Assembly: GCA_963810055.1 (NCBI GenBank)
Contig: CAWEME010000008.1
Span: 174,124-198,123 of the forward strand
Direction of reading: 5' to 3'
Length of the DNA: 24,000 nt
Source: an uncultured Alphaproteobacteria bacterium
GTDB lineage: Bacteria; Pseudomonadota; Alphaproteobacteria; ATCC43930; CGMCC-115725
The position numbers and the translations under genes were made by a program. Below, one piece after another: positions 2,395-23,501 of the stretch. Positions within the stretch are counted from its first letter, which is position 1, and the number at the start of each line of letters is the position of its first letter. Under the pieces are notes generated by a model that worked only from the letters and a program-made list of their open reading frames with translations, was not told where the DNA came from and ran no database searches.

Positions 2395-3057
2395 ATGTCG
2401 CCTGGTAAGAAGCCGAGGATCAAAAAGCCACCTCCACCGCCCACGCCAAAAACGCCAAAGCCTTGGGACGTGCCACCTCAACCAAAAATCGGGGATTCTG
2501 ATCGTGAGATTACATATGCCGCTGTAGGACGTGCGCTTTCTCAGTGGGAGTTGTTTGAATCAAACTTATTACAGTTGTTCGTGGTTTTTGTCGGCTCCGG
2601 TCCGACGGCACTTCTAACCGCAGCTCGGGCCTATGGAACAATCCAAACGTTCCGCGGTCGCGCCGATATGATTGAGGGCGCCGCTGAGGTGTTCTTCCTA
2701 ATTTACAAAAACAGTGATTTAGAGAAGCGCATAAGCGACTTCATGGACATTGCCCGCAATTATGCGGCACGGAGAAATGAGATCGCTCACGGAATTGTTT
2801 GGACAACTCATTGGGCCGGGACACAGAAACAAGGGAGCGCACTTTTCCCGGCGCGATACGCGAGCAATAAAAACAAAATCGGCAGCTTCCCGCTGGGTGA
2901 AACAGGCGCCCAAGTGCCGACCCATGTCTATTCGTCTGCCGAAATTGGGATGTTTACGAGCCGGTTTTTGGAATTAACAAGTCAGGCGCACAAGATTTAT
3001 ATCCAGACGGCCCGTTTTCATTATGCAAGTGCCAATAAGGAGAAGCTTCCAACATAG
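2395..3057 (+). CDS. HEPN-motif protein (putative RNase / abortive-infection-like), Pro/Lys-rich N-terminus
   Basis: ARNYAARRNEIAHG contains R-N-x-x-x-H, the Rx4-6H HEPN signature with a polar residue after the Arg. The region before it looks helical. The N-terminal 30 aa are KKPPPPPTPKTPKP low complexity. ATG is preceded by GAAGGGA. Confidence 0.65.
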   Translation: MSPGKKPRIKKPPPPPTPKTPKPWDVPPQPKIGDSDREITYAAVGRALSQWELFESNLLQLFVVFVGSGPTALLTAARAYGTIQTFRGRADMIEGAAEVFFLIYKNSDLEKRISDFMDIARNYAARRNEIAHGIVWTTHWAGTQKQGSALFPARYASNKNKIGSFPLGETGAQVPTHVYSSAEIGMFTSRFLELTSQAHKIYIQTARFHYASANKEKLPT

Positions 3058-3193: not shown

Positions 3194-3766
3194 ATGCGCG
3201 ATCTTTTCGGATTTGGCACGGCAGCGCTTATAGCCTTGGCTTCCCTCGCGCTCCAGCCTTGGTCATTAGCTTGGTGGATCGGCATGGCACTTGCCGCGGC
3301 CCTCGTCGTTCTATCGGGGGGCGATTTGTTATACAGGCGCTTCCTGTCGTGGCAAGTACGGCAGCATTTAAAACCCGTGCGCCAAACCCCTATATGGAAA
3401 GCGGTCGCACATATACGGGACGCTATTAACGACACGAGCCACGGCGAGTGTTACCCCGAAACTCTCAAAGCCATCCGGCAAGCGGCGCTCGATGGCAAAA
3501 TAAAATTGCGGGGACGCCCAGAGATTAATACCGACGGCCCTCAAAAATTCAGCGACGTTAGTTCCGACATCCCGCCGGAATATTGGAGGGTTTCATTGAT
3601 CGGCGCGATGGCGACTGATGAGCGATGCTACGGCGTCGGCTATCCCCATACAAATCCCGAAACGGTTTACGCATGGGGACAAAAGGGGGTTTACGAAAAG
3701 AAGCGTTACTCCGATCTGACTGTGAACATGCAAGAAATCAAACGTGAATGGCCGTCTGAAACATGA
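3194..3766 (+). CDS. membrane protein, two N-terminal TM helices, uncharacterised soluble C-terminal domain
   Basis: Hydrophobic stretches FGFGTAALIALASLAL and SLAWWIGMALAAALVVLSGG. It sits directly downstream of the HEPN gene on the same strand. Confidence 0.6.
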   Translation: MRDLFGFGTAALIALASLALQPWSLAWWIGMALAAALVVLSGGDLLYRRFLSWQVRQHLKPVRQTPIWKAVAHIRDAINDTSHGECYPETLKAIRQAALDGKIKLRGRPEINTDGPQKFSDVSSDIPPEYWRVSLIGAMATDERCYGVGYPHTNPETVYAWGQKGVYEKKRYSDLTVNMQEIKREWPSET

Positions 3767-3857: not shown

Positions 3858-3944
3858 GGCAGGGTTGCAGAGCGGTCGATTGCGCTTCCCTGAAAAGGAA
3901 GTGAACTCGAAAGAGTTCCGAGGGTTCGAATCCCTCCCCTATTC
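3858..3944 (+). tRNA. class II (Ser-like, long variable arm) tRNA-like gene with anticodon GAA (Phe); non-canonical acceptor stem, no encoded CCA
   Basis: Hand fold. D arm is GCA-GAGCGGTCGAT-TGC, which includes G18G19. Anticodon arm is CTTCC-CTGAAAA-GGAAG (U33, GAA, A37). The 18-nt variable arm has a perfect stem GAACTC-GAAA-GAGTTC. T arm is GAGGG-TTCGAAT-CCCTC. The acceptor is GGCAGGG/CCCTATT (two G:U pairs and one C.A mismatch); an alternative is an 8-bp GAAT[GGC]AGGG/CCCTATTC stem starting at 3854 with a 3-nt bulge. An 11-bp terminator hairpin follows immediately. Confidence 0.55.
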
Positions 3945-3945
3945 C

Positions 3946-3985
3946 GAGGCCCGCTCCAGTTCGCCGTAGAGCGGGCCTCGCTTTT
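3946..3985 (+). terminator. rho-independent terminator immediately after the tRNA-like gene
   Basis: Perfect 11-bp stem GAGGCCCGCTC (3946-3956) / GAGCGGGCCTC (3969-3979), a 12-nt loop, then GCTTTT. Confidence 0.7.
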
Positions 3986-4054: not shown

Positions 4055-4933
4055 GTGGATCAACGTGTGAAGGCCTTTCTTGCAAAGCGTCAGGCTTCCA
4101 ATCCCCGTGCCTTGGCCTATTACACCAGTCTTTGGGACGGGCATATGGCTGCCGGATTGGTGAACAATCATTTTGTGTCCGAGCTCACAAGCGGCTCTGA
4201 CCCCAAGTTTTTTCAACGAGTGTGGGAGATGCTCTTAGCCCGTCATTTGACCGCCTGCGGTCACGACATCACTTCCAGTCCAGAGGGCGAGCCTGACTTC
4301 TGCTTCGAACACGCGGGCGTCGTCGTATGGGTGGAAGCCGTTTCGCCCGAGCCTGGTCCCGATCTTTCTCGCAACCCTCCTACGACTGGAAGGAACGTTC
4401 CGCATAGAGAAACGCTTCTTCGTTGGACCACCGCTTTAGACGCAAAATGGAAGAAGGGTTCCGCTTATCGACGCGATGGTGTCGTCAAGCCGCAAGATGC
4501 ATATGTGATAGCAATTGATGGAAGCCAGCTAGGCTGGTTTCCCCTTGCGCACGGCCATTCTCGAATGCCATACCTCGTTGAGGCTACGTTTGCCATGGGA
4601 CCGCTGGCATTCGAGATTAACACAACGACTGGTGCATTTGTCGGGACTTCCCCCACGGTAAGTTTCTCCACTGCGAATAGAAATAATTCTCCAGTCCGAA
4701 CGGAACCCTTTTTCAATCGCAACTATTCCAACGTCAGTGCTGTTATTGGTTGTGTGCCGCCCATGTTTTGTGAGTCCATCCTGCCGATCCAAGTTGCTTA
4801 TAATCCGCTCGCAGATGTTTCCCTAAAGCCAGGCTGCTTTGGTCAGTCCGCCGAAGAATGGACAGCGGAATTGGTTGGTACTGATGCTGAGGGGCAAGAC
4901 TGGAAATTGAGGCGGCTCAATACTGTTGCATAA
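4055..4933 (+). CDS. hypothetical protein, weak PD-(D/E)xK nuclease-like pattern
   Basis: GTG start 8 nt after GAGGAGA. The segment GEPDFCFEHAGVVVWVEAVSP resembles the PD...E core of restriction-endonuclease-fold proteins, but no Lys follows. No other motif was recognised. Confidence 0.65.
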   Translation: MDQRVKAFLAKRQASNPRALAYYTSLWDGHMAAGLVNNHFVSELTSGSDPKFFQRVWEMLLARHLTACGHDITSSPEGEPDFCFEHAGVVVWVEAVSPEPGPDLSRNPPTTGRNVPHRETLLRWTTALDAKWKKGSAYRRDGVVKPQDAYVIAIDGSQLGWFPLAHGHSRMPYLVEATFAMGPLAFEINTTTGAFVGTSPTVSFSTANRNNSPVRTEPFFNRNYSNVSAVIGCVPPMFCESILPIQVAYNPLADVSLKPGCFGQSAEEWTAELVGTDAEGQDWKLRRLNTVA

Positions 4934-5071
4934 TTTAAGAATTTTGCACCAATTTTAGGCCGTTGAAAGAACGGGGCTTTTCTGGTGCAGAAATCCGGTG
5001 CAGAATCGCCGCATGATTTACGTCTATCCGCCGTCAGTTCGGGGGGCCTTGATCGCCAAGGGCAACGCCGC

Positions 5072-5863
5072 ATGAGCGGCCCCAATGCCAAAAAGCAGAG
5101 GGCCGGTTGGGAGACCCTCGACAGGCTGTTCGCCGAGGCTGCGAATGTCTGGGTCATCCACTACTCGTGCGAAAGTTTCTACGACCGGCCTAACGGCCGG
5201 TCGCCGAGAATTACGTCAATTGCAGTGCGCAAGCTCAACTCCGCGCAGACGCGCTCCTTCTCAATTCATCAGGTCGCTGAACGCCGTAATGTTCCATCCG
5301 ACGAGATCGAGGCGCACTACGACAGTCTTGAGCGAGAGATGCTGGACGCCTTCTACGATCATGTCCGCAGCTTCCAGGGAATGAAATATCTCCACTGGAA
5401 TATGCGAGACATCAATTTCGGATTCGCCGCCATCGAGCACCGCTACCGCGTGCTGGGCGGCGATCCGGCTGTCATCGAGGACGAAAGGAAGATCGACCTC
5501 TCCCGCTTGCTGATCGACATATTCGGGGTTGGCTATATCGGCCACCCTCGCCTTGAGAGCCTGTTGACTAAGAATTCTATCCGGCCTCTCGACTTCCTGA
5601 CTGGCGCTCAGGAGGCCGCAGCGTTCGACCAGAGGAATTTCGTCGGCTTGCATCAATCGACGCTGCGCAAGGTGGACGTGCTGGCGAATATCGCCGATCG
5701 TGCCCACAACCGACATCTCAAGACCAACACGACCTGGTGGGAAATGCACGGCGGCAGGGTTCGATCTGTATCCGTCTGGATTGCTGAAAACAGGTGGATT
5801 GCACTCGCGGCGAGCGTCGCCAGCATTATTGGTCTTTATTTTGTATTATGGCCAAGAAAGTAA
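5072..5863 (+). CDS. hypothetical protein with degenerate DEDD/RNase H-like exonuclease pattern and C-terminal TM anchor
   Basis: The ORF opens at GTG 4985, and ATG 5072 (MSGPNAKK...) is the more likely start. VIHYSCESF, YLHWNMRDINFGF and GLHQSTLRKVD are spaced like the ExoI/ExoII/ExoIII motifs of DnaQ-like exonucleases, but with non-canonical residues. The C-terminus WIALAASVASIIGLYFVLW is a TM helix. Confidence 0.65.
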   Translation: MSGPNAKKQRAGWETLDRLFAEAANVWVIHYSCESFYDRPNGRSPRITSIAVRKLNSAQTRSFSIHQVAERRNVPSDEIEAHYDSLEREMLDAFYDHVRSFQGMKYLHWNMRDINFGFAAIEHRYRVLGGDPAVIEDERKIDLSRLLIDIFGVGYIGHPRLESLLTKNSIRPLDFLTGAQEAAAFDQRNFVGLHQSTLRKVDVLANIADRAHNRHLKTNTTWWEMHGGRVRSVSVWIAENRWIALAASVASIIGLYFVLWPRK

Positions 5864-5875
5864 GCAGGCTACGGG

Positions 5876-7390
5876 GTGGAAATGGGCGGCACGGGCATCG
5901 AACAGAGAATGGCCATTCTCCGGAGCGCGGCCGATCAGCAGATCGTCAAGCCCTTTCGCACTCATGGGTGGGCGGCAGAGATTACTGAAGCTAAACAGGA
6001 CGGCGAATATCTCGTTATTAAGGCCGTAAAGGCCGACGTTACGCGATGTGTTGCGCTACTGTATTCCTCTGCCACCGATAACAAATATTACAAGAAACTT
6101 GATTCAGAAGTTGATCGTATATTCACTAACGGTGAATTGTATATGATTGAAAGCTTCGCTCACGGGTTGAAGAAGCCAGTTGTCCCTGTAGATCAATTTT
6201 TCCCCGTCCTCGTCGCATGGAATAAAGAATTACATCCTCAGACCAGGCGGCCTCCCGTGAAGCCGCGCCCATCAAGCATCCATTCAATCAAAGCCGAAAA
6301 TCCGCTTCTCAGCATTTGGAGTCGTCTCGACCAATTCGCAAGCACGCACTTAGCAGAGAAGCTCATTAGACGTCGCGCCAAAGAACAATCAATCGATATT
6401 TCTGACGAAAAAGTCACCAGTAAGGGGGCTGGCGTCGCGTTTGCACTTAGGAGTGCATCAGATTATTTCCGCTCAGTTCCGTTCGAGAGCCTGAATAAGA
6501 GAATTATTAGCATCTATTACGGCGGGCTTGTACTGTCCTTCGCAGAAATGCTTGCCTCTCCAACTGGTCCCGCCGATCTGGATGAGATTGAAGGGTACAC
6601 CAAGGTTGGGCATGGATTTTATACGTTCGGCACCGAGTCAAGAGGTTTCAGCGAACTCGTCGTGGGTGTCTTGGCAACGGGATTCCTACCGCGTTGGGCG
6701 GACTTTCTCGAACATGACGTACGTAGCTATCCAAAAGAGAAGGCAAAATCCGAAGAAGGGGTGTCAAAGCTTCCGCGCGATACATTCTGCACGCTCCGGA
6801 AGCTGCTATCCGCAGTTCCGGAGATTTCCGACCTATTCTCAGAAGCATTTGATAGTGAGCCATCTTGGATCATGCCGGTGCTGGACGTGGAAGCAAACAG
6901 TCCACGCTCGTTTATCCGCCAACCGGTGCTGAACAGTACTTACATCAAGCTCATAGATCGGTCGGGTCAGATCGCACAGACAAGACTTGAAAGCGCTGGA
7001 TGGCCCATTGCCGAGATTTCACAGGACAGTGATAGGCGAAATGGCCAAATATTCCGCGCACGTGTAGATCATCCGGAAAGCAATCACTGGTCTGAAGCTC
7101 TACCGATTCATCGTAGCCCATTTGAAAATAGCGGTGCATTGATATTGCCTCCCTTGAGTGATTTGTACGAATACCGTGTCGTCGCCATGGCCGTACTCTA
7201 TGCTTTGTCGATCTTGGTTCGTTATATGCCGCGCACATGGAGGCGTGTGGAGGGCGGAGACCTCGATCAACATCTTGCGCTTGTCAAAACGACGATCGGG
7301 GTGTTCGAGCGCATCCTTCCTCAGGAATTCCTAGAAGCGATCACCGGAGAGCGCGTTATCGCGACCCAACCCGGAGGGCTTTTCAACTGA
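5876..7390 (+). CDS. hypothetical 504-aa protein (possibly YaaC-like C-terminal region)
   Basis: Long ORF beginning 13 nt after the previous stop (GTG 5876 or ATG 5882). The C-terminal YRVVAMAVLYALSILVRYMPRTWRRVEGGD recalls the ...LS.L.RY.P..W... segment of YaaC-family proteins. This comes from memory only and was not verified. Confidence 0.7.
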   Translation: MEMGGTGIEQRMAILRSAADQQIVKPFRTHGWAAEITEAKQDGEYLVIKAVKADVTRCVALLYSSATDNKYYKKLDSEVDRIFTNGELYMIESFAHGLKKPVVPVDQFFPVLVAWNKELHPQTRRPPVKPRPSSIHSIKAENPLLSIWSRLDQFASTHLAEKLIRRRAKEQSIDISDEKVTSKGAGVAFALRSASDYFRSVPFESLNKRIISIYYGGLVLSFAEMLASPTGPADLDEIEGYTKVGHGFYTFGTESRGFSELVVGVLATGFLPRWADFLEHDVRSYPKEKAKSEEGVSKLPRDTFCTLRKLLSAVPEISDLFSEAFDSEPSWIMPVLDVEANSPRSFIRQPVLNSTYIKLIDRSGQIAQTRLESAGWPIAEISQDSDRRNGQIFRARVDHPESNHWSEALPIHRSPFENSGALILPPLSDLYEYRVVAMAVLYALSILVRYMPRTWRRVEGGDLDQHLALVKTTIGVFERILPQEFLEAITGERVIATQPGGLFN

Positions 7391-7454
7391 GGGGGGTCGC
7401 ATAGCCGGTGCGGGAGATCGCCGACTGCTACAACGTCGGCCCCAGGCTTGAGTC

Positions 7455-7898
7455 ATGACCGATACGCGCACCCCCGAGCAGCGCCGTGCCATCATGCAGG
7501 CAGTGCGAGGGAAAGACACCGGCCCCGAGATGATCGTGCGGCGACTCGTCCACGGTATGGGTTACCGCTATCGCCTTCACGTTGCTGGCTTGCCTGGCCG
7601 ACCCGACCTCGTGTTCCCGAGTCGCCGCAAAGTGGTATTCGTGCATGGGTGCTTTTGGCACGGCCACGGATGCCGCTATGGACAGCTCCCCAAGTCCAGG
7701 CTTAACTTCTGGACGGCCAAAATCGGGCGCAATCGGCGCCGCGACCGCACCCTTGTAACCGCCCTCAAAAAACAAGGCTGGGCCGTCCTCATCGTCTGGC
7801 AATGCAAGACGCGGCAACTCGATCAACTCGGACCTTTACGGCAACAACTCGCAAAATTCTTGTCCGTTTCCCCACAATCCCGATCTACATCCGCCTAG
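7455..7898 (+). CDS. vsr: very-short-patch repair endonuclease (Vsr)
   Basis: RRAIMQAVRGKDTGPEMIVRRLVHGMGYRYRLH...LPGRPDLVFPSRRKVVFVHGCFWHGH...NFWTAKIGRNRRRD matches the Vsr family signatures (PE..R, DhVF, FV.GCFWH.H, FW..K...N..RD). It lies immediately upstream of a C5-MTase. Confidence 0.9.
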   Translation: MTDTRTPEQRRAIMQAVRGKDTGPEMIVRRLVHGMGYRYRLHVAGLPGRPDLVFPSRRKVVFVHGCFWHGHGCRYGQLPKSRLNFWTAKIGRNRRRDRTLVTALKKQGWAVLIVWQCKTRQLDQLGPLRQQLAKFLSVSPQSRSTSA

Positions 7899-7937
7899 CT
7901 ATCCGTTAGGATTCCCGAATCAGTGAGGATGGGCTGG

Positions 7938-9275
7938 ATGACCAAGCGACCGATCGGGATCGATCTTTTTGCCGGAGCGGGAGGAATGAGCCTCGGCTTC
8001 GAGCAGGCGGGTTTCGACGTGGTTGCCGCCGTCGAGATCGATCCCGTGCATTGCGCTGTCCACAAATTCAATTTTCCCAAAACGGCCGTGCTGCCCCGAT
8101 CGGTAGTCGGCCTGAAAGCCGCCGACATCCGCATTGCGGCTGGCATCGGTCGAAGCCCGATCGATTGCGTATTCGGCGGGCCCCCCTGTCAAGGATTCTC
8201 GTTGATCGGCCATCGCGCGCTCGAAGACCCGCGCAACAGCCTTGTGCTCGAATTCGTGCGCCTGGTAGCTGAACTCGACGCCCGCACCTTCGTATTCGAG
8301 AATGTCAAAGGACTTACCTTAGGGAAACACAAACCGTTCTTAGACGAGCTGGTCGCCGCCTTCCATCGAGCCGGTTACACAGTGCGGTTGCCGTGGCACG
8401 TTTTGAATGCCGATCGCTACGCCGTTCCGCAGCACCGCGAGCGATTGATCCTGTTCGGCGCAAAAAAGGGCGAGAATATTCCGAACTACCCCGTTCCTCT
8501 CGTGAATCCGATTGACGATCGGAAATCTATCCCCGGCTTGCCGATCGGTCCGAGTTGCATTGCGGCGCTAGCCGATCTTCCCGACGCCGATCGCTTCGAC
8601 ACGCTTATCGAAACGGACGCCGTTCGCACGACTTCATTCCGCACGCCGTCACCCTACGCCGCCGAATTTAGGTGCCTTACGAACGATGCGTGGCACCGTG
8701 GTTACGTTAGAAATTGGAATCCAGCCGTTTTGACTTCCAGCGCCCGCACGAGCCACACCGCCATTTCGCGCCGTCGATTCGAAGAAACGACGCCCGGCAA
8801 GGTCGAGCCTATCAGCCGCTTTTTCAAACTTTCGCCCGGCGGCTTGTCGAACACTTTACGCGCTGGAACCGACGGAGCGCGCGGCGCGTTCACCAGCCCG
8901 CGCCCCATCCATTACAAATACCCCCGTTGCATCACCGTGCGCGAAATGGCCCGGCTCCATGGCTTTCCCGATTGGTTCAGATTCCACGCGACCAAATGGC
9001 ACGGCGCGCGACAGATCGGCAATGCCGTTCCGCCGCCACTCGCAAGAGCGATCGCCGGCGCCGTCGCAAAGGCGCTGCGAATCCGCCCGTCGCGTCCCTC
9101 TCGTGTCGTCGATCTTGGGGATGTGGCCTTGCTGTATATGGAAATGTCAGCGGCGGCAGAGCACTTCGGCGTCGAACCTCCGAACGGCCGCCGTGATCGC
9201 AAAAGCGGTGCGCGCAAGCGCAAACAGCACGAGATCGAGGAAACGCGCCGCCGCTTGAGGATCGTCTATGCCTAA
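7938..9275 (+). CDS. dcm: DNA (cytosine-5)-methyltransferase
   Basis: Motif I IDLFAGAGGMSLGF, motif IV GGPPCQGFS, motif VI FVFENVKGL, motif VIII QHRERLILFG, motif IX ITVREMARLHGFPDWFRF, motif X RQIGNAVPPPLA. The ORF opens at GTG 7923; ATG 7938, preceded by GAGGA, is the preferred start. Confidence 0.95.
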   Translation: MTKRPIGIDLFAGAGGMSLGFEQAGFDVVAAVEIDPVHCAVHKFNFPKTAVLPRSVVGLKAADIRIAAGIGRSPIDCVFGGPPCQGFSLIGHRALEDPRNSLVLEFVRLVAELDARTFVFENVKGLTLGKHKPFLDELVAAFHRAGYTVRLPWHVLNADRYAVPQHRERLILFGAKKGENIPNYPVPLVNPIDDRKSIPGLPIGPSCIAALADLPDADRFDTLIETDAVRTTSFRTPSPYAAEFRCLTNDAWHRGYVRNWNPAVLTSSARTSHTAISRRRFEETTPGKVEPISRFFKLSPGGLSNTLRAGTDGARGAFTSPRPIHYKYPRCITVREMARLHGFPDWFRFHATKWHGARQIGNAVPPPLARAIAGAVAKALRIRPSRPSRVVDLGDVALLYMEMSAAAEHFGVEPPNGRRDRKSGARKRKQHEIEETRRRLRIVYA

Positions 9276-10080
9276 GAAACCACACGCCCTCAATCGCTAC
9301 GAGTCTCTTATCGAGAAGATATTTTTCGACCATTACAAGAAAGGCGCCACCCAATTCGAATTCGATCGAGAGGAGCTGATCGCCGCCGCTGCTGCATTGG
9401 GCTTCGATACCGTCAAGAATGTCGGCGATGTGATCTACACCTTTCGTTATCGGAAAAGTCTTCCCGACAAGATTCTTGCCACTCAACCGGAAAACAAGCA
9501 CTGGCTCATTCTCGGCGCCGGCGATGCGCGCTACCGATTCCGTCTCAGCAACCTCGCCTATATTCACCCGACGCAAGGGCTGATCGTTCGCAAAATTCCG
9601 GACTCAACGCCGGAAATCATCGAGCGTTACGCCTTCACGGACGAACAGGCGTTGCTAGCAAAGATTCGTTACAATCGCCTGATCGACATTTTTCTTGGGA
9701 TCACGGCGTATTCTCTCCAAAACCATCTTCGCACCAACATCGCCAATTACGGACAAATCGAGATTGACGAACTTTATGTCGGGGTAGACGCACGCGCCGC
9801 TCAGTACGTTGTGCCGGTTCAGGCCAAGGGCGGTAAAGATGTGATCGGCGTTATCCAAACGATCCAAGATACCGTTTTTTGCGAGGCCGAAACCCGTTAC
9901 GCTAACTCTATCCCGCGTCCCGTGTCCGCTCAATTCATGGAGAACGATACTATTGCCCTGTTCGAATTGCATTTCGACGGCGACGACGTTTCGATCATTC
10001 AAGAGCGCCATTACAGGCTCACGGAATCCAAGGACATCACCGGCAAAGACCTAAAGGCGTATCGCAAGAATAAGGTCTAA
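9268..10080 (+). CDS. putative type II restriction endonuclease (cognate to the C5-MTase)
   Basis: The start overlaps the MTase stop by 8 nt (ATGCCTAA), implying translational coupling. EIDELYVGVD...YVVPVQAKGGKD fits a PD-(D/E)xK D...QxK core. Specificity is unknown. Confidence 0.6.
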   Translation: MPKKPHALNRYESLIEKIFFDHYKKGATQFEFDREELIAAAAALGFDTVKNVGDVIYTFRYRKSLPDKILATQPENKHWLILGAGDARYRFRLSNLAYIHPTQGLIVRKIPDSTPEIIERYAFTDEQALLAKIRYNRLIDIFLGITAYSLQNHLRTNIANYGQIEIDELYVGVDARAAQYVVPVQAKGGKDVIGVIQTIQDTVFCEAETRYANSIPRPVSAQFMENDTIALFELHFDGDDVSIIQERHYRLTESKDITGKDLKAYRKNKV

Positions 10081-15415: not shown

Positions 15416-16564
15416 CTAGGACCCGAGAGCTTTTCCCAGGCTTCCGGCCACTTGCGCAGCGGCGTCCCTAACAGGCTTATCCGCCAAATGCGCATAGCGC
15501 ATTGTCGTCTGTATCTGGGTATGGCCGAGAAGCCGGCCGACAACCACGATATTCACGCCCTGCATGACCGCATTCGAAGCGTAGGTATGGCGTAGATCAT
15601 GAATTCTAACGTGTTCGAGGCTGGCCTTCTTGCGGATGCGTTGCCAAGGCGGCTGAATATCGGTCGCATGCTGGCCAGGCACATGGCCCGCGATGACATA
15701 TTCATTGTCCGGCAGGCGGGGCAGGGCAGCGAGTACCTTGGCGGCCTCCTCGGGCAGGGGAATACGGCGCGGTCCGGTCTTCGAATCGGGCAGCTTTATG
15801 TAGCCGTCGCTGATATAGGACCATTTCAGGGTTTGGATTTCCCTCAGGCGGCAGCCGGTCAAAATGAGAAGTTGAATTGCCGCAATCGCATAAGGAGATT
15901 CGGAACCATCGGCGCCCGCTTCATTGAGTGCCTGCCCCAATCGTGTTAGCTCTTCCGTGCTTAGGAAGGTCTCGCGCTTGCGTTCGGGAAATTTTTTGAT
16001 GTGTCGGCAGGGATTGGAGCCGTCCGGCCGTAAGCCCCACACCTCGCACAGGTTGAACAGCTTGGAAAGCACACCCAAGGTCCGGTTGGCCTGATAAGGT
16101 TTTAGGCGCATTTGGTGATGGAGCTGCGCCATATCGGCGCGGGTCACGTCAACCACCTTAAATGGCCCAATCGCCGGATTGATGAACAGGTCGATAGACC
16201 GGCGATATTCGCGTTGCGTGTTCGGCTTGCAATGTTCGAGCACATGATCGCGGTAGAAGCGCTCGCACATCGTGGCGACAGTGACTGACCTACGGTGATC
16301 GTGAATCTCCTGGGCCGGATTTTGGCCGTGAGCAACAGCGCCGAGAAGTTCTTTAGCGCGCTTCCGCGCTTGCTCGGCGGTTAGAATGCCGTGCCGGCCG
16401 ATCTTGACCCGGCGCGTGCGTCCGCCGCTGCGATATTGGACGAGATAGGTCTTCTTGCCGCTCGGCCAGACACGCAAGCCGAAGCCCTTCACTTCATCAT
16501 CGAATATGATAAGCTCGCGTGTCTCTGGTGATATGGCTTCGACGCTACGCTTGGTAAGTTTCAT
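15416..16564 (-). CDS. int: tyrosine-type site-specific integrase (P4-like, DUF4102-type N-terminal arm-binding domain)
   Basis: The N-terminus FDDEVKGFGLRVWPSGKKTYLVQYRSGGRTRRVKIG is the DUF4102 pattern. Catalytic residues are in TGCRLREI, HDLRHTYAS and LLGHTQIQTTMRYAHL (R...HxxR...Y). Confidence 0.95.
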   Translation of the reverse strand: MKLTKRSVEAISPETRELIIFDDEVKGFGLRVWPSGKKTYLVQYRSGGRTRRVKIGRHGILTAEQARKRAKELLGAVAHGQNPAQEIHDHRRSVTVATMCERFYRDHVLEHCKPNTQREYRRSIDLFINPAIGPFKVVDVTRADMAQLHHQMRLKPYQANRTLGVLSKLFNLCEVWGLRPDGSNPCRHIKKFPERKRETFLSTEELTRLGQALNEAGADGSESPYAIAAIQLLILTGCRLREIQTLKWSYISDGYIKLPDSKTGPRRIPLPEEAAKVLAALPRLPDNEYVIAGHVPGQHATDIQPPWQRIRKKASLEHVRIHDLRHTYASNAVMQGVNIVVVGRLLGHTQIQTTMRYAHLADKPVRDAAAQVAGSLGKALGS

Positions 16565-16732: not shown

Positions 16733-16779
16733 CTCATAACCTGAAGGTCGGAGGTTCAAATCCTCCCCCCGCAACCACC
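16733..16779 (+). repeat. attR of GI-1: displaced 3' part of tRNA-fMet (47-bp perfect direct repeat of 479-525)
   Basis: Character-by-character identity with 479-525. It lacks the 5' half of the tRNA, so it is not a gene. Confidence 0.9.
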
Positions 16780-18392
16780 GAGAGTCTAACTCCGGTTAGG
16801 TCTTTGTTCTTCTTCCCTACCAGCATCAGGATACCTGCCAGGTCACCGTGCAGCGTGGCCGGGATCTCGCCGCGTTTGGGGCCTGGCAGGAGGCTCACTT
16901 TGCTCACCAGTGAGCGTATGAGCTCAGCCGCCTCGCGGGCCGCCTCCGGGTCTTCCAGTGCCGCCGAGAGGTGCTCGATCTTGGCACGGTAGACCTCGGC
17001 CATGTTCGGGTGAACATCCGGGAAGTCCTGTGGGGCATTGGCCAGCCTGAAACTGGCTTCGGCCTTTTCCCGTTCCAATTTGCCGAGGCGATCGAGCAGG
17101 GCAGGGGATTTACCCCCGTCTACGATGATATCAACGGCCTTCTCGATTTGCCTTTCTACCCGCTCCAATGTTCGTTTATCGGCTTCGGCGGCTGCCCGCC
17201 GCTCGTGATTGAGCCGATTGGTTTCCTCTTGGAAGTCGCGGACTGCTTTCTCGGCGGCTTGCGGCGTGACAAGAATAGCCTTCAAGCCGTCGAATATGCG
17301 TTTTTCGATTACGTCACGTTTGACCGTGTGCCCGTTCTTGCAGGCCCCACGCCGGAAATGATTGGCGCAGCCATAGCGGTCGTTTTGAATGACCACGTAA
17401 TTGCCGCCGCACATGCCGCAACTGAGCAGCCCAGAGAACAGGAAGCGCTTGCGATGTTGCCCATTGAGGCGGTTCGCGAAGCTCTCCCGCACTGCCTGGA
17501 TGCTCTCTTGGAACTCTATGGCAAGCGCGGCCTGGCGGCTCTTTGCGGCTTCCCAAGCCGAATCCTGGACAATCCGCAACTCCGACACGTCCTGAATGAT
17601 CCACTCAGATTTCGCGTTGATTCGGGAGATTCGCTTGCCGGTATCCGGATTCTTGACGTAGCGCAGCCGGTTCCAGACCAGCTTGCCGATATAGAGCTCG
17701 TTATTGAGGATGCCCGTGCCGCGCGAGGCGTGGCCGCGAATGGTGGTATCCATCCAGGCTCCGCCATGCGGGCCGGGAACATGTTGGGTGTTTAAGTCGC
17801 GGGCAATGGCGCGCGGCGATTTGCCAACGGCGAATTCGCGGAAAATGCGGCGGACGATTTTGGCTTCGTCTTCGTTGATGGTGCGGTCACCCCGGATCGG
17901 CTCGCCCTTGGCGTCCAGTTTCGTGACGGGGCGATAGCCGTAGCAAAGCCCGCCGCCGGATTTTCCTTGTTCGACCCGCCCTCGAATCCCGCGCCGCGTC
18001 TTGTCGGCCAAATCCTTGAGGAAAAGGGCGTTCATGGTGCCCTTCAATCCAACATGAAGGTGGGTAATTTCGCCTTCGGACAGGGTGACAATCTTGATGC
18101 CGGCGAAGCTCAGCCGCTTGAAAACCCCGGCCACGTCCTCCTGGTCGCGGCTGATGCGGTCCAGGGCCTCGGCAAGCACCATGTCAAACAGGCCCCGCGA
18201 GGCGTCCGTAAGGAGCGCCTGGATTCCTGGCCGGATAAGGCTAGCTCCGGATTTGGCGCGGTCATTGTAGCCTTCAACCACGTGCCATCCCTGCTTTTTG
18301 GCGTATTCGCGGCAAAGCCGAAGCTGGTCCTCGATTGAGGCGTCCCGCTGATTGTCCGAGGAATAACGGGCATAGAGCGCAACACGGATCAT
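16734..18392 (-). CDS. large serine recombinase (resolvase/invertase N-domain, recombinase domain, zinc ribbon, coiled coil)
   Basis: MIRVALYARYSSDNQ carries the catalytic Ser motif. Also present are LAEALDRISRD, the zinc ribbon CGMCGGNY...YGCANHFRRGACKN and a long helical C-terminus. Preferred start is ATG 18392, 8 nt after GGAGG (the ORF opens at 18410). The last 16-18 codons (..VVAGGGFEPPTFRL) are read from the antisense of the tRNA-derived repeat. Confidence 0.9.
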   Translation of the reverse strand: MIRVALYARYSSDNQRDASIEDQLRLCREYAKKQGWHVVEGYNDRAKSGASLIRPGIQALLTDASRGLFDMVLAEALDRISRDQEDVAGVFKRLSFAGIKIVTLSEGEITHLHVGLKGTMNALFLKDLADKTRRGIRGRVEQGKSGGGLCYGYRPVTKLDAKGEPIRGDRTINEDEAKIVRRIFREFAVGKSPRAIARDLNTQHVPGPHGGAWMDTTIRGHASRGTGILNNELYIGKLVWNRLRYVKNPDTGKRISRINAKSEWIIQDVSELRIVQDSAWEAAKSRQAALAIEFQESIQAVRESFANRLNGQHRKRFLFSGLLSCGMCGGNYVVIQNDRYGCANHFRRGACKNGHTVKRDVIEKRIFDGLKAILVTPQAAEKAVRDFQEETNRLNHERRAAAEADKRTLERVERQIEKAVDIIVDGGKSPALLDRLGKLEREKAEASFRLANAPQDFPDVHPNMAEVYRAKIEHLSAALEDPEAAREAAELIRSLVSKVSLLPGPKRGEIPATLHGDLAGILMLVGKKNKDLTGVRLSVVAGGGFEPPTFRL

Positions 18393-18416
18393 GGATTTAG
18401 CCTCCAACAAACCAGC

Positions 18417-19820: not shown

Positions 19821-20885
19821 TTATCCAGTAGCGACTGGAGTCTGGCGGTTTTCAACCTGCATATTCGGAGCGACGGGCCAAGGCGCGGAGCCCTCGATCA
19901 GCGCAGCGCCTTGACCTTGTTGCGGTGAGAATTTGGCGGCATAAGCGGCTGGCGTCAGCCAGCCGATGCGAGAATGAGGCCGAACGGTGTTATAGTCGCG
20001 CCGCCATTCTTCGAGGGCGGCACGCGCCTGGGCGAGCGAGGTGAACAGGGTCTCGTTCAAGAACTCGTCGCGCAGCCGGCCATTGAAGCTCTCGATGAAG
20101 GCGTTCTGGATCGGCTTGCCCGGATCGATGTAGTGCCAATCGACGCCCGTTTGCGCCGTCCAGGTCAGAATGGCATTGCTGGTCAGTTCCGTGCCGTTGT
20201 CGCTGCCGACCGTCTTGGGTTTGCCGTGGGCCGCGATGAGAAGATCGAGTTCGCGGGCCACCCGCTTGCCCGAGAGCGAGAAGTCTGCGATCGCGACCAG
20301 GCATTGCCGGGTGCAAACGTCATAGATCGCCAGAATGCGGAAGCGGCGACCGGAGTCAAGTTGATCGGACACGAAGTCGAGCACCCACAAGTCGTGCGGC
20401 AGCGCCGGGACCGGCATGGGCGTTCTTGTTCCCAAAGCCCTTTTGCGACCGCCCCGTTTGCGCACCATGAGCCGTTCCTCGCGATAGATGCGGAATAGCC
20501 GTTTGTGGTTCACGACAAAGCCCTCCCGGCGAAGGAAGATGAGCAAGCGGCGGTAGCCGAAGCGGCGGCGTTCCCGGGCCAAGGTCACAAGCCGCTCGCG
20601 CAGCCTGGGATCGTCGGGCCGCCGGGAGTGGTAGCGGATCGTCATCCGCACGCAGCCGATCACTTGGCACGCCCGCCGCTCGCTCATCTCATGGGCCGCC
20701 TTGAGATGGGCGACAGCTTCTCGCTTCACGGCGGGCGTTACCATTTTTTTGACAGTAAATCCTTCAAGCCCGCGTTGTCGAGCATGGCGTCGGCCAACAG
20801 CCGCTTCAGCTTCGAGTTCTCCGTCTCCAGCGCCTTCAGCCGCTTGGCTTCGGACACGTCCATGCCGCCGAACTTGCTCTTCCAA
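19821..20885 (-). CDS. IS3-family transposase OrfB (DDE), expressed as OrfAB by -1 frameshift at A7 (20744-20750)
   Basis: The DDE integrase core is present: WVLDFV..., [32 protein letters not shown]. OrfA ends TCA AAA AAA TGG TAA, and a -1 slip gives [11 protein letters not shown]..., the OrfB frame. Confidence 0.9.
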
Positions 20886-22553: not shown

Positions 22554-23501
22554 ATGAGTAAACCCAGCTCTCTGCCAGCATTGATCTTTGTCGTCATTCT
22601 CGGCATCGGTTTGGCCTTCGCCTATGCAACCTTTGACCTTTTCGATTACGGTGAAAGCCTGATGATCGCCGTTGGTTCCGTAATCTTTGCTTTTATTGTG
22701 TCCTACTCCGTCAAGGTTGCGGATCAATGGGAACGGGTCGTGGTGCTACGGCTTGGCCGCTTCCGCGCGCTCAGGGGCCCAGGCTTGTTTTTCATCATTC
22801 CGATCATCGAAACCGTCGCCTATTGGATCGACACCCGCGTGATCACGAGCGCGTTCAAGGCGGAAAAGACCCTCACCAAGGACACGGTGCCGGTGGATGT
22901 CGATGCGGTGCTGTTCTGGAAGGTCGTCGACCCAAAGAAGGCGGCGCTCGACGTTGCCGACTATGGCAGCGCCATCAATTGGGCCGCGCAGACAGCGCTG
23001 CGCGATGTCATCGGCAAGACCATGCTTTCGGACATGCTGGAAGGCCGGGATAAGATCAGCAACGAGTTGCAGAAGATCATCGACGTGCGGACCGAGCCCT
23101 GGGGCATCAACGTCATTTCGGTCGAGGTCAAGGATGTGCTGATCCCTTCGGCCTTGGAAGACGCGATGTCGATGCAGGCGCAGGCGGAGCGCGAACGCCA
23201 GGCGCGCGTCATCCTCGGCGATTCGGAGCGCCAGGTAGCCGAGAAATTCGTGGAGGCGGCGAGGATTTACGCCAATAATTCGACCGCATTCCATCTGCGC
23301 GCCATGAATATGCTGTATGAGGGCCTGAAGGCGAACGCATCGATCGTCATCGTTCCGAGCACTGCCGTTGAAACCATGCAGCTCGGCAACCTCGCGGGCT
23401 TGACCGCACTGGCCAAGGAGACGATCCAGGAACGCGCCGGCGAGCGCGCGCCAAGCTCATCTTCGGGCCCATGGTCTGGCTCCGCCCCCGCGAAATCGTA
23501 A
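22554..23501 (+). CDS. SPFH/band-7 (stomatin/slipin-like) membrane protein
   Basis: Strong RBS AAGGAG. Two N-terminal TM segments are followed by QWERVVVLRLGRFRALRGPGLFFIIP..., TKDTVPVDVDAVLFWKV and REPWGINVISVEVKDV, the typical PHB-domain blocks. The C-terminus is an Ala/Glu-rich helix. Confidence 0.9.
   Translation: MSKPSSLPALIFVVILGIGLAFAYATFDLFDYGESLMIAVGSVIFAFIVSYSVKVADQWERVVVLRLGRFRALRGPGLFFIIPIIETVAYWIDTRVITSAFKAEKTLTKDTVPVDVDAVLFWKVVDPKKAALDVADYGSAINWAAQTALRDVIGKTMLSDMLEGRDKISNELQKIIDVRTEPWGINVISVEVKDVLIPSALEDAMSMQAQAERERQARVILGDSERQVAEKFVEAARIYANNSTAFHLRAMNMLYEGLKANASIVIVPSTAVETMQLGNLAGLTALAKETIQERAGERAPSSSSGPWSGSAPAKS

Follow-up and report, generated by a model that had tools for sequence, protein, structure and literature searches.

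Three single-gene modules, probably acquired independently, beside a type II restriction–modification module in an alphaproteobacterial defence island

Gene content of the locus

The window analysed here is a 24,000-nucleotide (nt) stretch of an uncultured alphaproteobacterial genome (GenBank assembly GCA_963810055.1, contig CAWEME010000008.1, positions 174,124 to 198,123), and all coordinates below are those of the window. Three + strand genes, referred to as A, B and C, occupy positions 4055–7390, between a tRNA-like gene and a restriction–modification (RM) module, and an earlier note on this DNA had put them forward as one novel defence system. We find that A, B and C are real genes and probably three separate single-gene modules. 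Full-length homologues are numerous for every one of them: 125 for A, more than 3300 for B and 248 for C. The gene models are as follows:

4055–4933, + strand: gene A, GTG start, 292 amino acids
5072–5863, + strand: gene B, ATG start at 5072, 263 amino acids, set by the lengths and starts of its homologues
5882–7390, + strand: gene C, ATG start, 502 amino acids, the length of its homologues; alternative GTG start at 5876, 504 amino acids

The mechanical open reading frame (ORF) of B spans 4985–5863 from a GTG start and encodes 292 residues. Nearly all homologues of B are about 263 residues long, with an N-terminus at the residues encoded from the ATG at 5072, and the gene call in a read-level re-assembly of the same locus (L129) independently gives 263 residues. 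The earlier description of three same-strand reading frames at these places, the second of about 264 amino acids, is borne out accordingly, and the motifs quoted for the three proteins were all found in the translations or alignments.

The intergenic gaps measure 110 nt from the tRNA-like gene to A, 138 nt from A to B and 64 nt from C to vsr. B and C are separated by 12 nt if C starts at its GTG and by 18 nt if it starts at its ATG. Promoter-like and terminator-like sites, the latter a hairpin, lie in the A–B spacer, and the B–C gap has no terminator-like site on the + strand. The tight spacing claimed for the cluster thus holds for B and C (12 nt to the GTG) but not for A and B (138 nt). The statement that none of the proteins matches a nameable family stands in part: B has no name in Pfam, NCBIfam or PADLOC, but it corresponds to phrog_8766, C is a YaaC protein, and A is related to PD-T7-5.

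Linkage of A, B and C in other genomes

Loci were gathered for each family: for A, 38 from genomes; for B, 68 from metagenomes and 6 from viruses, plus look-ups; for C, loci in integrative and conjugative elements (ICEs), plasmids, viruses and genomes; and, for all three, the loci of the nearest relatives. The 138 loci fetched were then all searched by tblastn with A, B and C. The triplet was found in L129 alone, which is the same locus assembled from reads. None of the other 137 loci (42 of A, 80 of B and 15 of C) holds more than one of the three genes; flanks of at least 1 kb were available on both sides in 36, 40 and 12 of them, respectively. The nearest relatives (75% identity for A, 86% for B and 85% for C) are likewise unlinked and have entirely different neighbours. 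When the three nearest neighbours on each side were clustered, no family recurred in more than four loci, and a megablast search of the block against plasmids gave no match.

Composition differs as well: G+C content at third codon positions (GC3) is 0.71 in B against 0.52 in A and 0.53 in C, a sign that the genes were acquired separately. Comparison with hhalign detected no homology among the three families, nor between the N-terminal domain of C and A. The genes do not form a tight operon of shared composition, since the A–B gap carries terminator- and promoter-like sites and GC3 is unequal; only B and C are closely packed. The earlier note had made co-occurrence outside this locus one touchstone of its three-gene system, and that proposal is not sustained: no second gene of the three lies in any of the 137 loci, the closest relatives are unlinked, GC3 is unequal and A and B are 138 nt apart. 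The lack of co-occurrence elsewhere indicates instead that A, B and C are independent single-gene passengers.

Gene B: family, fold and C-terminal ends

B belongs to a very large and unusually conserved family. A word-index search returned more than 3300 matches, most of them about 263 residues long and 65–90% identical, and an exhaustive search with a hidden Markov model (HMM) brought up 1145 representatives of clusters at 50% identity, with E-values below 1e-30 for 361. Identity is about 70% across many alphaproteobacteria and 46–50% between Proteobacteria and Firmicutes, and members occur in Alpha-, Beta- and Gammaproteobacteria, in prophages and plasmids of Firmicutes, and in cyanobacteria. 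B matches phrog_8766 in PHROGs (E = 1.2e-73); no Pfam, NCBIfam or PADLOC model (2023 release) matched it. Two parts of the protein can be delimited:

residues about 25–215 of B: RNase H-like/PolB-exonuclease-like domain (AlphaFold2 model, Foldseek)
5792–5848, + strand: C-terminal transmembrane helix of B, residues about 241–259 (AlphaFold2 model and hydropathy)

The AlphaFold2 model of B (predicted local distance difference test, pLDDT, 88.1) has the order β1-β2-β3-αA-β4-αB-β5-αC, with strands at residues 26–33, 47–54 and 60–64, a helix at 80–100, a strand at 105–108, a helix at 118–127 and a strand at 140–142, followed by further helices and a terminal helix at 241–259. Most of the high-probability Foldseek matches in the PDB are DEDD/DnaQ-type exonucleases or their degenerate relative MAEL; the matches include Pop2 (E = 2.6e-3), Cap18, PolB exonuclease domains, DnaQ-Cas2, 3'hExo and MAEL, with probabilities up to 0.99 and TM-scores of 0.3–0.5. 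Weak Pfam matches to DNA_pol_B_exo1 (10 of 70) and DNA_pol_B_exo2 (3 of 70) were obtained for diverse members of the family, and profile searches of all PDB sequences with the family alignments returned nothing meaningful. As modelled, the fold of B is RNase H/DEDD-exonuclease-like, with the same order of strands and helices as the DEDD/DnaQ-like exonucleases Pop2/Caf1, Cap18 of the cyclic-oligonucleotide-based anti-phage signalling system (CBASS), the PolB exonuclease domain and 3'hExo.

The acidic ligands of this enzyme class are poorly kept. Across 70 aligned sequences, the position of the first aspartate (32) is S, A or T in every one; E34 is retained in 56 and replaced by Q in 11, D113 is retained in 52 and replaced by N or S in 15, and D202 is retained in just 26. 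A different set of residues is invariant (Y31, E87, L91, M111, G117, R124, G178, E181, S196 and K200) or nearly so (H30, C33, H108 and W109). Judged from the alignment, B lacks the set of four invariant acids that defines an active DEDD exonuclease. It differs from these enzymes in its lost or variable acids, its own invariant residues and the added C-terminal transmembrane helix, and it is nearer in spirit to MAEL, which has the same fold and has lost the DEDD residues, than to an active exonuclease. The model, the Foldseek matches and the non-conserved acids agree with the earlier view of the second protein as RNase H-fold-like with degenerate DEDD motifs.

Hydropathy analysis identified one C-terminal hydrophobic helix, with a Kyte–Doolittle value of 2.01 in a 19-residue window at residues 242–260; together with the modelled helix, this supports the transmembrane anchor that had been predicted there. 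Of 129 full-length representatives of the family, 113 (~88%) have such a hydrophobic segment at the C-terminus. In three cluster representatives, a TIR domain lies C-terminal to the B domain:

P0476: B domain 1–238, TIR_2 262–393
P0487: B domain 1–231, TIR_2 240–350
P0455 (815 amino acids): B domain 29–247, CAP12/Pycsar-type TIR 637–763, about 390 residues unassigned between them

P0487 and P0455 have no C-terminal hydrophobic segment, and P0476 is not below the hydrophobicity threshold. The family therefore shares an N-terminal module and carries alternative C-terminal ends, transmembrane or TIR.

Such alternative ends are also found in Pycsar and CBASS effectors, which B further resembles in its defence-island neighbours. 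It differs from them in its putative sensor: in place of a cyclic-nucleotide-binding or SAVED domain it has an RNase H-like one, a fold that has not been described as the sensor of Pycsar/CBASS effectors. Neighbour clustering of the B loci gave no cyclase as a recurrent neighbour, and, unlike those systems, B appears from its gene neighbourhoods to act alone, occasionally after an ATPase of about 1000 residues.

Gene B: neighbourhoods

Among the two nearest neighbours on each side in about 45 loci, B is accompanied by DarG, GajA/GajB, prokaryotic Argonaute (pAgo) with SIR2, and PD-T7-4; mad3/mad8-like and OLD-type ATPases, DUF4145 and PIN proteins, integrases, resolvases and HsdR are further neighbours. 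In one metagenome-assembled genome, B directly follows hsdM-hsdS-darT-darG-hsdR. In 17 Streptococcus Javan prophages, a B homologue (46% identity) lies in the lysogeny module; it points the same way as the integrase gene and the gene for a cI-like repressor, and away from the excisionase and early genes, which is the position of lysogen-expressed protection genes. B is also carried on plasmids of Bacillus, Agrobacterium, Legionella, Calothrix, Cereibacter and Robbsia.

The sole recurrent neighbour of B is a gene for an ATP-binding cassette (ABC)-type ATPase of about 1000 residues, which lies 7–86 nt upstream in about 5 of 80 loci: L090, L092, L094 and L112 (metagenome) and L128 (an Agrobacterium pusense plasmid). 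The ATPase matches PADLOC mad3/mad8 (E = 5e-97) or Ppl and is named 'TrlF family AAA-like ATPase' at NCBI. ATPase and B may form a two-gene variant. As an obligatory partner of B, this mad3/Ppl/TrlF-like ATPase, the only candidate to recur, was rejected at about 5 of 80 loci; no such gene is present in the window.

The closest B homologue with a usable contig (86% identity, L133) is preceded by a gene for a DUF559 protein, which has a Vsr-like endonuclease fold, at 925–1440 of that locus. In the window, a true vsr lies 1.6 kb downstream of B, and the resemblance is probably coincidental.

Gene A: a nuclease-like protein related to PD-T7-5 and PD-T7-1

The protein encoded by A matches two PADLOC models, PD-T7-5 (PDLC04110; E = 2.5e-5, 21.6 bits, A residues 55–231) and PD-T7-1 (PDLC04073; E = 7.5e-5), and both matches span the nuclease core, residues about 50–231. 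Other members of the A family reach E = 5.4e-12 for PD-T7-5, with scores of 21–43.5 bits, and 1.6e-9 for PD-T7-1, so that the link is a property of the family and not a chance match. PD-T7-1 and PD-T7-5, both single-gene Escherichia coli anti-phage proteins, are among the PD-(D/E)xK-containing anti-phage proteins of Vassallo et al. 2022 (PMC10952713). A also matches phrog_8571 (E = 8.8e-11) in PHROGs; no Pfam model, PDDEXK included, or NCBIfam model matched it, and searches of phage genomes gave no match.

Across an alignment of 34 sequences, W57, G78, P80, D81, E94, A95, P98, K131 and Y138 are invariant, as is the string LLRWT (121–125), and E58 is nearly so. The PD...E segment seen earlier in the first protein is therefore well founded, with P80-D81 and E94 invariant and the family matching PD-T7-5/PD-T7-1. 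Position 96 is V, I, T or similar in these sequences, not K, and the invariant K131 lies downstream.

A resembles PD-T7-5 and PD-T7-1 in being stand-alone, in its size class (290–450 amino acids), in its PD...E core and in its occurrence on plasmids and in islands. It departs from PD-T7-5 in that the match is partial and weak (profile positions 57–231 of 346), the lysine is off its canonical place and the family is mainly alphaproteobacterial. This pattern indicates a probable relation at the superfamily level, not clear family membership, and we infer from the alignments that A is a candidate stand-alone PD-(D/E)xK-like nuclease, distantly related to PD-T7-5 and PD-T7-1.

A type I RM operon houses A in three loci (L021, L024 and L034), where it separates hsdS from hsdR; this gap is a well-known site of accessory defence genes. 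Neighbourhoods of A are otherwise variable, and distant relatives are found on Acinetobacter and Providencia plasmids.

Gene C: an N-terminally extended YaaC-family protein

C matches the Pfam family YaaC (PF14175) at 64.5 bits, against a gathering cut-off of 27, over model positions 2–307 of 307. The YaaC-like segment noticed earlier near the end of the third protein is thereby confirmed and extended to most of its length:

5882–6256, + strand: N-terminal αβββαβ domain of C, residues 1 to about 117–125 (AlphaFold2 model)
6332–7342, + strand: YaaC domain of C, residues 151–487 (PF14175)

All 28 aligned homologues of C match YaaC, with no other Pfam family at E ≤ 1. The family is named after the uncharacterised YaaC of Bacillus subtilis, and a full-text literature search turned up no functional study of YaaC/PF14175. 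C residues 151–487 match the whole model; relative to the family at large, C has an extra N-terminal domain of about 125 residues, and its subfamily is cargo of ICEs, plasmids and islands, not a core gene. C gave no PADLOC or NCBIfam match. The AlphaFold2 model (pLDDT 88.5, predicted TM-score 0.83) comprises the N-terminal domain, a helical core and a β-rich insertion, and no recognisable structural relative was found in the PDB or BFVD, nor a PDB relative by sequence profile. Many charged and aromatic residues are invariant in the alignment. A HEPN identity for C, considered on account of the string R-x4-H (R392-H397), was rejected, since the model puts this string on a β strand and not at the start of a helix, and there is no HEPN Pfam match at E ≤ 1 in the 28 members.

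The two parts of C are separable. Methylobacterium plasmid homologues (H63 and H64) correspond to residues 136–500 only, the YaaC part alone, and about 100 residues of the N-terminal domain recur at the C-terminus of an otherwise unrelated 480-residue Acinetobacter protein (H65). This hypothetical protein is encoded at 3882–5324 of L138, an Acinetobacter baumannii plasmid, downstream of a DUF927 primase-like gene; the occurrence of the N-terminal domain there, apart from YaaC, marks it as independently mobile.

C is solitary between an SNF2 helicase gene and transfer genes in Pseudomonas syringae ICEs, lies next to DarT and insertion sequence (IS) elements in Lichenibacterium, and occurs in three prophage-like contigs. 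In F-type conjugative plasmids it sits at the border of the ArdA/PsiB/methylase leading region, on the strand opposite to the leading-region genes. C is thus an N-terminally extended YaaC-family protein and a solitary cargo gene of mobile elements.

Two of the C loci have homologues at a leading-region edge with an antirestriction gene, psiB and a DNA methylase gene: L136, the E. coli IncFIA plasmid pHNEC46, and L137, a Leclercia F-type plasmid. In pHNEC46, the homologue directly follows a small resolvase gene, with blaNDM-1/ble about 2 kb away; genes of the YaaC family are thus carried along on resistance plasmids of clinical relevance. Elsewhere (L008), a 73%-identical homologue (7001–8509) lies directly downstream of two ORFs with inosine monophosphate dehydrogenase (IMPDH) domains (5844–6888). 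In B. subtilis, yaaC likewise adjoins guaB, the IMPDH gene, and the association may be a coincidence or may be real.

Genomic surroundings

The genes flanking the cluster on either side are:

3858–3945, + strand: tRNA-like gene (ARAGORN; Rfam tRNA, 43 bits), left edge of the cluster
3959–3976: terminator-like hairpin after the tRNA-like gene
7455–7898, + strand: Vsr (PADLOC Vsr, E = 2e-31; Pfam Vsr)
7923–9275, + strand: C5 cytosine methylase (PADLOC MTase_II, E = 6.5e-176; Pfam DNA_methylase)
9268–10080, + strand: type II restriction endonuclease (PADLOC REase_II, E = 3.7e-123)

These assignments by ARAGORN, Rfam, Pfam and PADLOC confirm the placement of the three genes between a tRNA-like gene and a Vsr-Dcm-endonuclease module. 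The methylase and endonuclease ORFs overlap at 9268–9275, and with the adjacent Vsr they constitute a type II RM module with Vsr. It belongs to the surroundings of A, B and C and has no part in a joint system with them.

With its long variable arm, UGAACUCGAAAGAGUUC, the tRNA-like gene is of class II shape, but its anticodon is GAA (Phe). Two G-U pairs and a C-A mismatch make the acceptor stem imperfect, and the gene does not encode CCA. By its sequence it looks like a tRNA-Ser(GGA) body with a single anticodon change; it may be the decayed remains of a tRNA or of an att site or else, provided that seryl-tRNA synthetase charges it, a tRNA that mistranslates Phe codons as Ser. It was not found beside A, B or C homologues elsewhere.

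The remainder of the window contains:

230–345, + strand: 5S rRNA (Rfam)
about 447–523, + strand: tRNA-fMet, a possible integration site
779–1705, + strand: ORF with a weak N-terminal Arc/ribbon-helix-helix-like match, upstream of the tRNA-like gene
2395–3057, + strand: ORF without a family match, upstream of the tRNA-like gene
3194–3766, + strand: ORF without a family match, upstream of the tRNA-like gene
15416–16564, − strand: tyrosine integrase with an Arm-DNA-binding domain
16734–18410, − strand: large serine recombinase
19821–20885, − strand: IS3-family (rve) transposase
22554–23501, + strand: SPFH/Band 7 gene

Gene calling on the L129 re-assembly also yields the ORFs at 2395–3057 and 3194–3766, upstream of A. 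The window opens at the 3' end of an rRNA operon, which places the mobile and defence region directly downstream of rrn. Integrase, serine recombinase and transposase in a row suggest several nested or decayed mobile elements and not one clean island. Together with the RM module, they bear out the mobile defence-island setting that had been proposed, which is therefore real. No att-type direct repeats of the 3' end of the tRNA-like gene were found, and the island borders are accordingly undefined.

Discussion

We conclude that positions 4055–7390 probably hold three independent, separately acquired single-gene modules that have accreted beside the Vsr-Dcm-endonuclease module in a mosaic defence island. 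Gene models, family assignments, the folds of B and C, the non-linkage, the neighbourhoods and the domain swaps were computed directly, and from these we infer activities and any phage protection as follows. A would attack invading DNA as a stand-alone nuclease of PD-(D/E)xK type, akin to PD-T7-5 and PD-T7-1. B would be a one-protein sensor–effector of the abortive-infection type, whose cytoplasmic RNase H/PolB-exonuclease-like domain, without canonical DEDD ligands, would recognise a phage-derived nucleic acid or replication intermediate; the C-terminal transmembrane helix would then execute the response through membrane damage and abortive infection, and the TIR-carrying paralogues would act by NAD+ depletion instead. 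Alternatively, B could be a membrane-tethered, non-canonical nuclease acting on entering DNA. C, with the weakest case of the three, might serve as a solitary conflict or establishment factor of mobile elements, combining YaaC with an N-terminal domain of restriction-endonuclease-like topology; a defence role is plausible.

The more specific proposal for B is that it represents a widespread, unnamed one-protein anti-phage family, in which a sensor of former exonuclease fold is joined to an interchangeable effector, a transmembrane helix in most members and a TIR NADase in some. We put this forward tentatively, as a possibility somewhat short of even.

Several observations weigh against these interpretations. 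A TIR fusion in relatives is no proof that the transmembrane helix is an effector, and the helix could merely localise a nuclease at the membrane; the Foldseek E-values of B are also marginal (2.6e-3 and weaker, with TM-scores of 0.3–0.5). For A, the lysine of (D/E)xK is absent at its expected place, and the PD-T7-5 match is weak (21.6 bits) and covers profile positions 57–231 of 346. C matches no PADLOC model, and an anti-defence or establishment role would account for its plasmid location just as well. Lastly, B and C are only 12–18 nt apart here and are probably co-transcribed, and a lineage-specific functional pairing may exist.

That spacing bears on two of the alternatives. B and C could be a recently assembled, lineage-specific two-gene module, with B, for example, as membrane effector and C as regulator or sensor. 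The short gap has no terminator-like site on the + strand, and elsewhere B sometimes follows the mad3/Ppl-like ATPase of about 1000 residues, so two-gene arrangements are possible for it. We nevertheless consider such a module improbable, as C is present in 0 of 80 B loci and B in 0 of 15 C loci, GC3 is 0.71 against 0.53, and both families are overwhelmingly solitary. Still less probable, to the point that we give it hardly any weight, is a three-component defence system of A, B and C working as a unit. The genes share a strand, are adjacent and lie in a defence island, B and C closely spaced, yet the three do not co-occur in the 137 other loci, closest relatives included, each family stands alone beside unrelated genes, GC3 is unequal, and the 138-nt spacer between A and B carries a terminator-like hairpin.

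A further alternative denies the genes a role in immunity: they may provide maintenance or transfer functions of mobile elements. B would then be a membrane-associated nucleic-acid-processing enzyme of prophages and plasmids, C a factor that helps plasmids or ICEs to establish themselves or counters defence, and A a restriction-like nuclease that is orphan or degenerate. The position of C beside the F-type leading region (ArdA, PsiB, methylase) and within ICE backbones fits this, B and C are both carried by plasmids and prophages, and neither matches any PADLOC model. On the other hand, immunity genes typically show the kind of TIR fusions and neighbours (DarTG, Gabija, pAgo–SIR2 and PD-T7-4) that B has. 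The defence proteins to which A is related came out of an experimental selection, A sits inside type I RM operons, and C lies on the strand opposite to the leading-region genes. We therefore regard maintenance functions as unlikely, though they have a real chance of being correct, and retain three independently acquired, single-gene immunity candidates as our reading of the locus.

Adjacency within a defence island does not make a system, and this locus splits into three single-gene candidates. Going by sequence comparison, A appears to be a new member or outlier of the PD-T7-5/PD-T7-1 kind and C a new architectural variant of the YaaC family. If the proposed roles are correct, A would extend the PD-T7-5/PD-T7-1 nuclease group into the Alphaproteobacteria, and C would offer a first functional handle on the YaaC family. 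B is the main lead, for its very large and unusually conserved family, its placement in prophages and defence islands, and its transmembrane and TIR ends; were its proposed role true, it would add a new type of sensor domain, a degenerate exonuclease fold, to the one-protein abortive-infection systems.

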